In this document: positions 1 to 2,234 of the stretch, one piece after another
Position numbering within the stretch: the first letter of the stretch is position 1
Layout: each line of letters starts with the position of its first letter
Source: Escherichia coli
Lineage (GTDB): Bacteria; Pseudomonadota; Gammaproteobacteria; Enterobacterales; Enterobacteriaceae
Reading direction: 5' to 3' (one strand)
Assembly (NCBI RefSeq): GCF_024298765.1
Contig: NZ_CP101210.1
Length of the DNA: 64,000 nucleotides
Position numbers: made by a program

Positions 1-2234
1 TTTGTTATCGTGCCATTATTGGTATGGCCGACGGTTATTGCCTTAGCCGTACTTATATTCACGTTAACTTTTCTGGCTGAAATAATATTCTCCTTTCCGC
101 TCCTGGTTGTGCGTATTTCTCTTCAGGAATTACAACTTGAGTTAATGGTTGAATATGCACTTTTTTTCAGTGTAATGGGTGGCATCGGTTGGCAATTCTC
201 CCGCAGAACGCCTCCTGAATTAAAAAACAGACTGCATTGCTGGCTGGTCTTTTCTCCGGCCTATTTCTGGTTAATTCTCTCGAATTTCATTCTTTATATT
301 ACTCCAGAGAAATCAGCGTTGCTGGAAAATATCCGAAACTTCTTTCTGACGTTTGTCTGGCTTCCCCTGAATTTTTCCCCTTTTTGGCCGCAGCCGTGGA
401 CTGATTTTGTCGGCCCGATTAGTGCACAGCTTGGTTTTGCGTTGGGATATTACTGCCAGTGGCGTAGCAAAAATAGAAGCCAGGGGCAGAAGTGGGTTGA
501 GTGGGGAACGTGCTTAAATTTGGCGATTTTAGCTCAGGGGCCGTTATTCAATTATTTACAATGAATAGTCTAAGGAATCCAAATAGCCCGGTTGCACTTC
601 ACAACCGGGCATCATCCTTACGACGCCAGCGACAACTTCTGCTGCGTATACTCCACCAGCCACTGACTCACACGAGATTGTTGTTCCGCATTCAGCCACA
701 TGCCTTGTTTTGTGCGACGCCACAGGGCATCGTCGGCGCGGCGGACCCATTCGTGATCCACCAGGTATTTCAGCTCCGCTTCGTAGAACTCATGACCGAA
801 ATCTTCACCGAGGTCGCTTATCGCCCCTGCATTGCCGAGCAGCAGTTCGCTGTTGCTGCCGTAAGTGCGCGCGTAGTGACGTGCCAGCGATTCGGTCAGG
901 AACGGGTAACGGCGGCGCAGGCGGGCGGCGTAATCGTCACGGTCGCCTTCAATGGCACCACCCGGCAGCACGCTCTCTTTCGTCCACGCCGGACCAATGC
1001 CCTGATAATATGGCGTCAGTTTTTCCAGCGCGTGCTCCGCCAGTTTGCGGTAGGTGGTCAGCTTACCGCCGAATACCGACAGCAGCGGCGCTTTGCCGTT
1101 TTCATCATGGATATCAAGGGTGTAATCACGAGTGATAGCCTGCGGCGAATCGGACTCATCATCACACAGCGGACGCACGCCGGAGTAAGTCCAGACGATA
1201 TCGTCCCGGCTTAACTGCTTTTTAAAGTGCGTGTTATACACTTTCAGCAGGTAATTGATTTCACTCTCTTCAATCTTCACTGCTTTTGGATCACCTTTGT
1301 ATTCCACATCGGTAGTGCCGATGATGGAAAACTCGTCCATCCACGGGATCACGAAGACAATACGTTTATCTTCGTTTTGCAGAATGTAGGCCTGCTTTTG
1401 TGTATGAACGCGCGGCACGACAATATGGCTGCCTTTGATCAGGCGAATGCCATAAGGCGAAGGCAGATGCATCCCGTCGTCGAAGAACTGCTTTACCCAC
1501 GGGCCGGTGGCGTTCACGAGGCCGCGCGCTTGCCAGCTATATTTTTTGCCGGTATCGATATCTTCCGCTTCCACAATCCACAGGCCGTTTTCGCGGCGAG
1601 CAGAAGTGGCACGAGTACGAGTAAGCACTTCACCGCCTTTACGCACCACCATCTGGGCGTTGGCGAGTACCAGACGGGCGTCGTCTACCCAACAGTCGGA
1701 ATATTCAAATCCGCGCTTAATTTCCGGTTTTAATACTGAATTTGCGCCAAAACGCAAACCGGTTGATCCCGGCAGGCTGGTGCGTTTACCCAGATGATCG
1801 TACATAAACAGACCAATCCGAATCATCCACGCCGGGCGCAGATGCGGACGATGCGGCAGGCGAAAACGCATCGGGAAGGCGATATGCGGGGCCATTTTCA
1901 GTAGCACTTCACGTTCAGCCAGCGCCTCGCTGACCAGGCGGAATTCATAGTGCTCAAGGTAGCGCAGGCCACCGTGAATGAGTTTTGAACTGGCGGAAGA
2001 GGTCGCGCAAGCGAGATCCTGCGCCTCCAGCATCAGCACGGATAAACCGCGTCCAGCGGCGTCTGCCGCGATACCAGCACCATTGATGCCGCCACCTATC
2101 ACAATCAGATCTTTGGTTTCCATGCTGCCCTCATTCACTTTCGTTAAAGCTCACAAATGTTCGTTATCGAACATATTAGCAAAGAATCGCGCTTTGGGTA
2201 ACATTGAAAAAACATTTTAGAGTGATATGTATAA

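Follow-up and report, generated by a model that had tools for sequence, protein, structure and literature searches.

A stand-alone relative of the PstS-like membrane anchor at the end of a variable gene module between glgP and glpD in Escherichia coli

The window analyzed here is a 64,000-nucleotide (nt) stretch of Escherichia coli DNA (NCBI RefSeq assembly GCF_024298765.1, contig NZ_CP101210.1), which opens inside a gene next to glpD. We show that a genuine gene, coding for a 201-amino-acid (aa) inner-membrane protein, has its 3' 93% in bases 1 to 564, and alignments identify this protein as a stand-alone copy, or paralogue, of the ~170-residue polytopic membrane module of PstS-like proteins. 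Gene order and spacing further mark the 201-aa gene as the terminal, translationally coupled gene of a variable glgP-glpD module that is conserved but decaying. The gene is already catalogued in databases as coding for a hypothetical protein; its kinship to the PstS-like anchor domain, the make-up of the locus as pieced together here, and the way in which yzgL, the short open reading frame (ORF) at this position in K-12, arose appear to be new, all being absent from the literature searched, of which the original paper on the auf operon was not part. An orphan membrane protein of two-thirds of E. coli genomes is now tied to the anchor of PstS-like binding proteins, which gives work on the four-gene module a concrete starting point (partner, topology, and ligand class); the module, although common in E. 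coli, has never been studied because K-12 lacks it. The outcome is more bookkeeping than discovery: the edge ORF is real, yzgL is a deletion scar, and auf displaced part of an older operon.

The edge ORF and its product

Frame 1 of the + strand is free of stop codons from base 1 until the TGA at 562 to 564, and the ORF lister finds a single start-type codon within it, the GTG at base 10. The first-pass annotation took this GTG for the only possible start and placed the true 5' end outside the window. The upstream context, read from genomes that are 100% identical to window 1-20000 (e.g., 14EC020 and APEC O78:H4 E14033), bears out the second statement and narrows the first: the RefSeq coding sequence (CDS) in these genomes is 606 nt long, its ATG lies 42 nt before window base 1, the window lacks just 14 codons, and the GTG, the one start-type codon that the window offers, is internal. 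The ATG is preceded by AGGA and lies 2 nt past the stop of the upstream gene. The 201-aa product is RefSeq WP_000589349.1, named "hypothetical protein" (UniRef name "Ybl142"); its exact sequence is recorded on at least 1000 contigs, and it belongs to a family whose other Escherichia members are 63 to 95% identical to it. A literature search found no paper mentioning WP_000589349.1 or "Ybl142".

The composition is distinct from that of the adjacent core gene, as had been claimed, with a guanine-plus-cytosine (GC) fraction of 0.40 to 0.45 over bases 1 to 450 and 0.55 to 0.60 inside glpD. The whole gene has 43.1% GC, and 46.3% at third codon positions, compared with averages of 54.2% (standard deviation [sd] 2.1) and 59.9% (sd 3.5), respectively, for the 26 long ORFs of the window. 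The reported richness in TTA, ATA, and TTT codons is borne out for the first of these, TTA making up 5.5% of codons (1.0% in the background) and 33% of leucine codons (8% in the background). The ATA enrichment is based on only three codons, and TTT is frequent because the protein is rich in phenylalanine, the TTT:TTC ratio of 55:45 being the same as the background. The product is highly hydrophobic and multi-pass, in agreement with the initial description, with a grand average of hydropathy (GRAVY) of 0.65 and several 19-residue windows above 2.0.

Kinship to the anchor domain of PstS-like proteins

The 201-aa protein has no match at E ≤ 1 in Pfam, NCBIfam, or PADLOC, and scans of the products of its two upstream neighbors gave nothing meaningful. 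The earlier statement that there is no recognizable motif is thus right for family databases, but the protein does have relatives among its neighbors. In the 502-aa PstS-like proteins the PBP_like_2 domain is preceded by ~200 N-terminal residues that form a polytopic domain, and BLASTP links this membrane domain, the N terminus of a 375-aa protein (g375), and the stand-alone proteins with E values of 3.5e-20 to 4e-10, including 3.5e-20 for g375 against a fused PstS-like protein and about 1e-14 for the stand-alone protein m169 against a fused 515-aa protein. An hhalign comparison of the Escherichia stand-alone family with the fused domains alone, leaving out the bridging sequences, returns a probability of 96.6% and an E value of 6e-10 over 164 collinear columns. 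Across 21 aligned sequences (stand-alone, fused PstS-like, and g375) P19, G77, P100, W134, W147, F160, G163, and Y164 are invariant. The last three of these belong to a signature motif in the fifth helix, first hinted at by a BLASTP match at equal residue numbers in a fused protein.

The window protein and the N-terminal domain of the about 500-aa PstS-like proteins thus correspond over ~170 collinear residues, agreeing in helix order and in the invariant P, G, W, and F-x-LGY positions. They differ in that the window protein has no PBP_like_2 domain (PF12849 / TIGR02136, E ≤ 1), its identity to the fused domains is only 16 to 23%, and its last helix is short; that helix is absent from the non-Escherichia stand-alone forms.

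AlphaFold2 (AF2) modeling with the shallow family alignment gave a mean predicted local distance difference test score (pLDDT) of 46, which is unusable, and adding the paralogues raised it to 73.7 with a predicted template modeling score (pTM) of 0.70. The improved model has helices at residues 8-44, 55-83, 91-114, 119-133, 148-170, and 175-200. Fold searches with this model gave no significant match (Foldseek, none at E ≤ 0.001), and a structural resemblance at 8% identity is generic, with similar scores to halves of major facilitator superfamily (MFS) transporters and to designed helical bundles.

The kinship does not extend to ATP-binding cassette (ABC) transporter permeases of the PstA/PstC type, as neither a BPD_transp_1 domain nor an ATPase gene in the operon is found. 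Small membrane subunits of binding-protein-dependent secondary transporters include DctQ of the tripartite ATP-independent periplasmic (TRAP) and TctB of the tripartite tricarboxylate (TTT) systems. The analogy may be drawn in that a small polytopic membrane protein is coded beside periplasmic binding-protein genes in an operon without an ATPase, but the 201-aa protein has no Pfam match at E ≤ 1, the locus lacks a large 12-helix partner, and in the present case a copy of the small module is part of the binding protein itself.

The glgP-glpD module

In the genomes inspected the 201-aa gene is the last before the convergent glpD, and the genes preceding it are variable. In the 95-99% identity class (2,834 genomes), the sampled genomes most often have the order glgP, genes for a 502-aa "PstS family" protein and for proteins of 236 and 255 aa, the 201-aa gene, and glpD, with the 236-aa gene missing in some. 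O157-type strains and E. marmotae have two PstS-like genes followed by the 201-aa gene, and the fullest form, in E. albertii and some E. coli, comprises two PstS-like genes, the 375-aa membrane protein, the 236-aa protein, 262-/258-aa paralogues, and the 201-aa gene. The same gene set occurs at the same site in other genera, and in E. coli, in O157-type strains, and on non-Escherichia contigs the 201-aa gene either starts 2 nt past the upstream stop or overlaps it, the spacing of a translationally coupled gene. The PstS-like proteins match PF12849 at about 1e-29 and a PDB PstS sequence at 4e-16, showing at the sequence level that the module's binding domains are related to solved phosphate-binding proteins, and an LLAGC lipobox marks the second PstS-like protein as a lipoprotein. 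PDB-sequence profile searches with the membrane module, 236-aa, and 258-aa families found nothing.

Some 236-aa alleles are labeled "YbbD family protein" in RefSeq (locus L030, 2501-3211). The corresponding model, NF007301, matches only 42 N-terminal residues of the 236-aa protein at 25 bits (cutoff 373), and the lead to Rhs immunity that the label offered was dropped, as tblastn finds no similarity at the K-12 rhsD-ybbD region, where ybbD is a pseudogene. To judge from these matches, the label looks uninformative.

The site also holds other genes in places. In E. coli loci L010 to L012 the fullest form is joined by ankyrin and zinc-ribbon proteins; in L010 (8630-10148) a 350-aa ankyrin-repeat gene and a 144-aa gene, whose product has weak zinc-ribbon matches, lie between the membrane gene and glpD. 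In another enterobacterial genome (locus L014, 5564-8263) an 899-aa helicase (AAA_11/AAA_12 plus DUF2726) is inserted inside the module and has PADLOC similarity to Mokosh MkoA/MkoC (about 1e-44), so the glgP-glpD site also collects defense-like cargo.

Distribution and selection

A megablast search of 5,426 complete E. coli genomes recovers the window 1-620 region in about 66% of them at ≥80% coverage (Table 1), and in 13 of 14 complete genomes whose annotation was inspected the 201-aa gene is intact, the exception being an IS1 truncation. In other Escherichia, among them E. albertii, E. marmotae, and E. whittamii, orthologues occupy the glgP-glpD site. Scanning the GTDB species genomes added three confirmed Escherichia species and nothing beyond, and a word-indexed search with the enlarged alignment returned Escherichia matches only. 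Beyond the Escherichia cluster and fragments, a profile search of 1.84 billion representative proteins retrieved a single full-length homologue, the diverged P0102 (184 aa). P0102 and its relatives (169 to 184 aa, 31 to 37% identity) are coded on metagenomic, non-Escherichia Enterobacteriaceae contigs, again at the glgP-glpD site, downstream of PstS-like genes and homologues of the 236-/258-aa genes, with overlapping start and stop codons.

Table 1. Occurrence of module and auf sequences among complete E. coli genomes
Query	Genomes with any match	Genomes at ≥80% coverage	Genomes searched
201-aa gene (window 1-620)	3,660	3,606	5,426
PstS-like gene (502 aa)	4,562	3,343	5,426
236-aa + 255-aa pair	3,014	2,277	5,426
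aufC	560	558	5,426

Between allele classes of the 201-aa gene the synonymous divergence (dS) reaches 0.8, with a ratio of nonsynonymous to synonymous divergence (dN/dS) of 0.22 to 0.23. Closer alleles have dN/dS of 0.23 to 0.56, the window allele being the highest (0.44 to 0.56), and glpD from the same genomes has 0.02 to 0.05 at a dS of 0.12 to 0.23. By these estimates, selection on the gene is purifying but relaxed, and its alleles date back unusually far compared with the flanking core gene. The first-pass annotation proposed a horizontally acquired or rapidly evolving accessory gene. The gene is accessory, as the recommended presence/absence survey shows (3,606 of 5,426 genomes), and it evolves fast (dN/dS 0.2 to 0.5, against 0.02 to 0.05 for glpD), but its distribution argues that it is not a recent import, because orthologues occupy glgP-glpD in other Escherichia and homologues are present in other Enterobacteriaceae.

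The origin of K-12 yzgL

K-12 has only the short yzgL ORF at this position, as the initial annotation stated, and the reason is a deletion. By blastn the K-12 glgP-glpD spacer matches the O157-type locus in two collinear blocks that overlap by about 8 nt, which implies that a 2.84-kb segment is gone from K-12, beginning at codon ~75 of the PstS-like gene and ending about 60 nt short of the stop codon of the 201-aa gene. The yzgL gene (NC_000913.3, locus L002, 5725-6006; corresponding to window ~499-521) is the fusion ORF that this deletion created. Residues 1 to ~73 of YzgL come from the beginning of the membrane domain of the PstS-like protein, and its tail is read in another frame from the EWGTCLSFVTLGMMAWALR-coding DNA that forms the last ~60 nt of the membrane gene. 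Homology of the window to the O157-type allele ends at base 521, so that the last 14 codons and the glpD spacer differ between allele classes. YzgL (b3427, 93 aa) therefore resembles the window gene in its chromosomal position and in sharing its last ~60 nt with the 3' end of the O157-type allele, but it is a deletion fusion that reads the shared nucleotides in another frame, and there is no same-frame protein homology or orthology. The designation "yzgL-like" consequently fails at the protein level, the N terminus of YzgL coming from the PstS-like gene and its tail being out of frame.

A similar scar is seen outside Escherichia, in locus L018 (4760-5056), where a 98-aa ORF is made up of residues 1-82 of a PstS-like membrane domain followed by the final 20 of the binding domain; by its structure this ORF is an independent internal-deletion remnant, analogous to yzgL.

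Topology and a possible role

The predicted topology is N-in, C-out, with five membrane helices and one periplasmic interfacial segment. The basic N terminus and the basic loops at residues 82-91 and 169-178 would be cytoplasmic, because of the positive-inside rule and because in the paralogues a periplasmic PstS-like domain is fused after the final helix. This helix, by which the PstS-like domain of the fused proteins crosses to the periplasm, comes after the second basic loop, and the lipobox of the second PstS-like protein fits a periplasmic location. With this topology the aromatic, proline-rich segment 115-147 would be periplasmic or interfacial, without forming a full span.

The explanation that we favor overall, with slightly better than even confidence, is that of a real gene coding for a free anchor module, placed last in its gene module, acting by pairing, and probably orphaned in the window lineage. 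Within the inner membrane, the 201-aa protein and the homologous PstS-like anchor would associate as a pseudo-symmetric hetero-oligomer, and this pairing could link periplasmic oxyanion binding to the two cytoplasmic proteins, or to a small conduit. Three observations weigh against it: parts of the module are found separately in some genomes, the 21-sequence alignment holds no invariant charged residue suggesting a chemistry, and the 201-aa gene persists where the PstS-like partner is gone.

A wider proposal, which we regard as speculative and rather unlikely, is that the glgP-glpD module is an undescribed Enterobacteriaceae envelope system, in which a heterodimer of modules would act as a binding-protein-gated conduit or transducer for a phosphate-like anion with no ABC ATPase. 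Its components, put forward with equal caution, would be the PstS-like receptor tethered to the five-helix module, the free paralogue, and two cytoplasmic proteins that belong to no known family.

The state of the window copy and other explanations

The window lineage and B2 strains carry a seven-gene chaperone-usher operon followed by the 236-aa, 255-aa, and 201-aa genes. The operon is confirmed as auf by the published TosR box, which lies exactly 360 bp upstream of its first gene, aufA. Between aufG and the 236-aa gene is a relic of 47 to 72 nt of the 3' end of the 502-aa PstS-like gene (L001, 7382-7454; L004, 8415-8461), and homology between auf and non-auf loci begins inside this stretch, from which it follows that auf displaced the PstS-like gene rather than inserting into an empty spacer. 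The 255-aa gene, directly upstream of the 201-aa gene, carries a frameshift in the annotation of all window-identical genomes (L001, 8181-8956; L032, 9711-10486; L033, 9748-10523) and is intact in NC101 and the other sampled genomes carrying it. Because of these two losses the window copy is probably a still-intact orphan of a partly dismantled module.

The same losses could be taken further, the gene being a nonfunctional leftover in this strain, its ORF open but drifting after loss of its partner, its operon mate, and possibly its promoter. This is a possibility that we take seriously but doubt. Besides the reduction of the PstS-like gene to its 3' relic and the frameshifted 255-aa gene, it accounts for the high dN/dS of the window allele and accords with repeated decay of the locus elsewhere (the K-12 deletion, IS1 insertions, and a broken g375). 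However, the ORF is uninterrupted, identical copies are widely recorded, the dN/dS remains below 1, and B2 strains with auf retain all three downstream genes intact; the 9 synonymous and 11 to 16 nonsynonymous substitutions that underlie the ratio are too few to separate relaxed selection from neutrality.

An immunity or defense role appears quite unlikely. The glgP-glpD site would then be a variable immunity or anti-phage island, and the 201-aa protein a membrane component that protects against, or executes, a membrane-targeting activity. The patchy distribution, the low GC, and the very high allelic divergence (dS of 0.8, against 0.2 for glpD) would suit such a role, as would the ankyrin protein, the zinc-ribbon protein, and the Mokosh-like helicase with DUF2726 found at the site elsewhere, and in size and helix count the protein resembles the immunity proteins of pore-forming colicins. 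However, PADLOC-DB 2.0 has no match for the 201-aa protein, its non-Escherichia homologue, the 236-/255-/258-/262-aa proteins, or the PstS-like proteins, no Pfam immunity family is matched at E ≤ 1, and no toxin-like gene is adjacent in the versions of the locus inspected. Moreover, no relatives other than the anchors of PstS-like binding proteins could be detected, and descent from such anchors would be odd for an immunity protein.

It is very improbable that the gene is a recent accessory gene that arrived with, or forms part of, the auf fimbrial island, although it shares the low GC of the auf genes and lies 1.7 kb downstream of aufG on the same strand in the window lineage. Only 560 genomes have aufC, against about 3,600 with the 201-aa gene, and most copies of the latter follow the PstS-like, 236-aa, and 255-aa genes without auf. 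The homology boundary inside the PstS-like relic makes auf the newcomer, orthologues lie at the same site in other Escherichia and other genera, and Pfam finds no fimbrial, usher, or chaperone domain in the 201-aa protein. Lastly, a chance ORF or annotation artifact in AT-rich DNA, for which the absence of family matches and of literature might speak, is scarcely credible given a dN/dS of 0.22 at a dS of 0.8, the conservation of length, start, and motif across genera, and an AF2 model that becomes confident once paralogues are included.

Neighboring features of the window

Coordinates within the window are collected in Table 2. The terminator scan assigns the intergenic hairpin to glpD as an intrinsic terminator; the hairpin lies 22 nt past the stop of the membrane gene, and its RNA fold has a predicted energy of -23.8 kcal/mol (z = -4.1).

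Table 2. Features at and around the 201-aa gene in window coordinates
Feature	Position	Strand	Basis
Codons 15-201 and stop (TGA 562-564) of the membrane-protein gene	1..564	+	ORF list; RefSeq CDS in window-identical genomes
GTG, internal codon Val18	10..12	+	N terminus MIKFRLYIPPVILGFVIVPLL conserved upstream in all family members
First basic loop, R82 R83 ... K89 R91, predicted cytoplasmic	202..231	+	Hydropathy; AF2 helices 55-83 and 91-114
Motif P153-I-S-A-Q-L-G-F-A-L-G-Y164, fifth helix	415..450	+	F160, G163, and Y164 invariant, P153 and L162 nearly so, in 21 modules
Second basic loop, R169 K171 R173 K178, predicted cytoplasmic	463..492	+	Hydropathy; alignment; AF2
Stretch surviving in K-12 inside yzgL, in a different frame	499..521	+	blastn of K-12 and O157-type loci against window-type locus
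GC-rich hairpin GCCCGGTTG-7 nt-CAACCGGGC between convergent genes	586..610	-	Terminator scan
glpD (aerobic glycerol-3-phosphate dehydrogenase), convergent core neighbor fixing the locus	618..2123	-	RefSeq annotation of identical genomes; ORF list

Between strains (window 1-2123 against L003, L004, and L005) glpD itself has a dS of 0.12 to 0.23, which seems high for an E. coli core gene and suggests that old haplotypes may extend from the variable module into this neighbor. Over the whole window (1-64000) no tRNA or tmRNA gene and no Rfam family at the gathering threshold is found. The rtcA gene (window 7284-8303) is an uninterrupted 339-codon ORF in the window and is annotated as frameshifted in strain 104, which is identical over window 1-620; the two sequences differ by an insertion or deletion near window position 8036.
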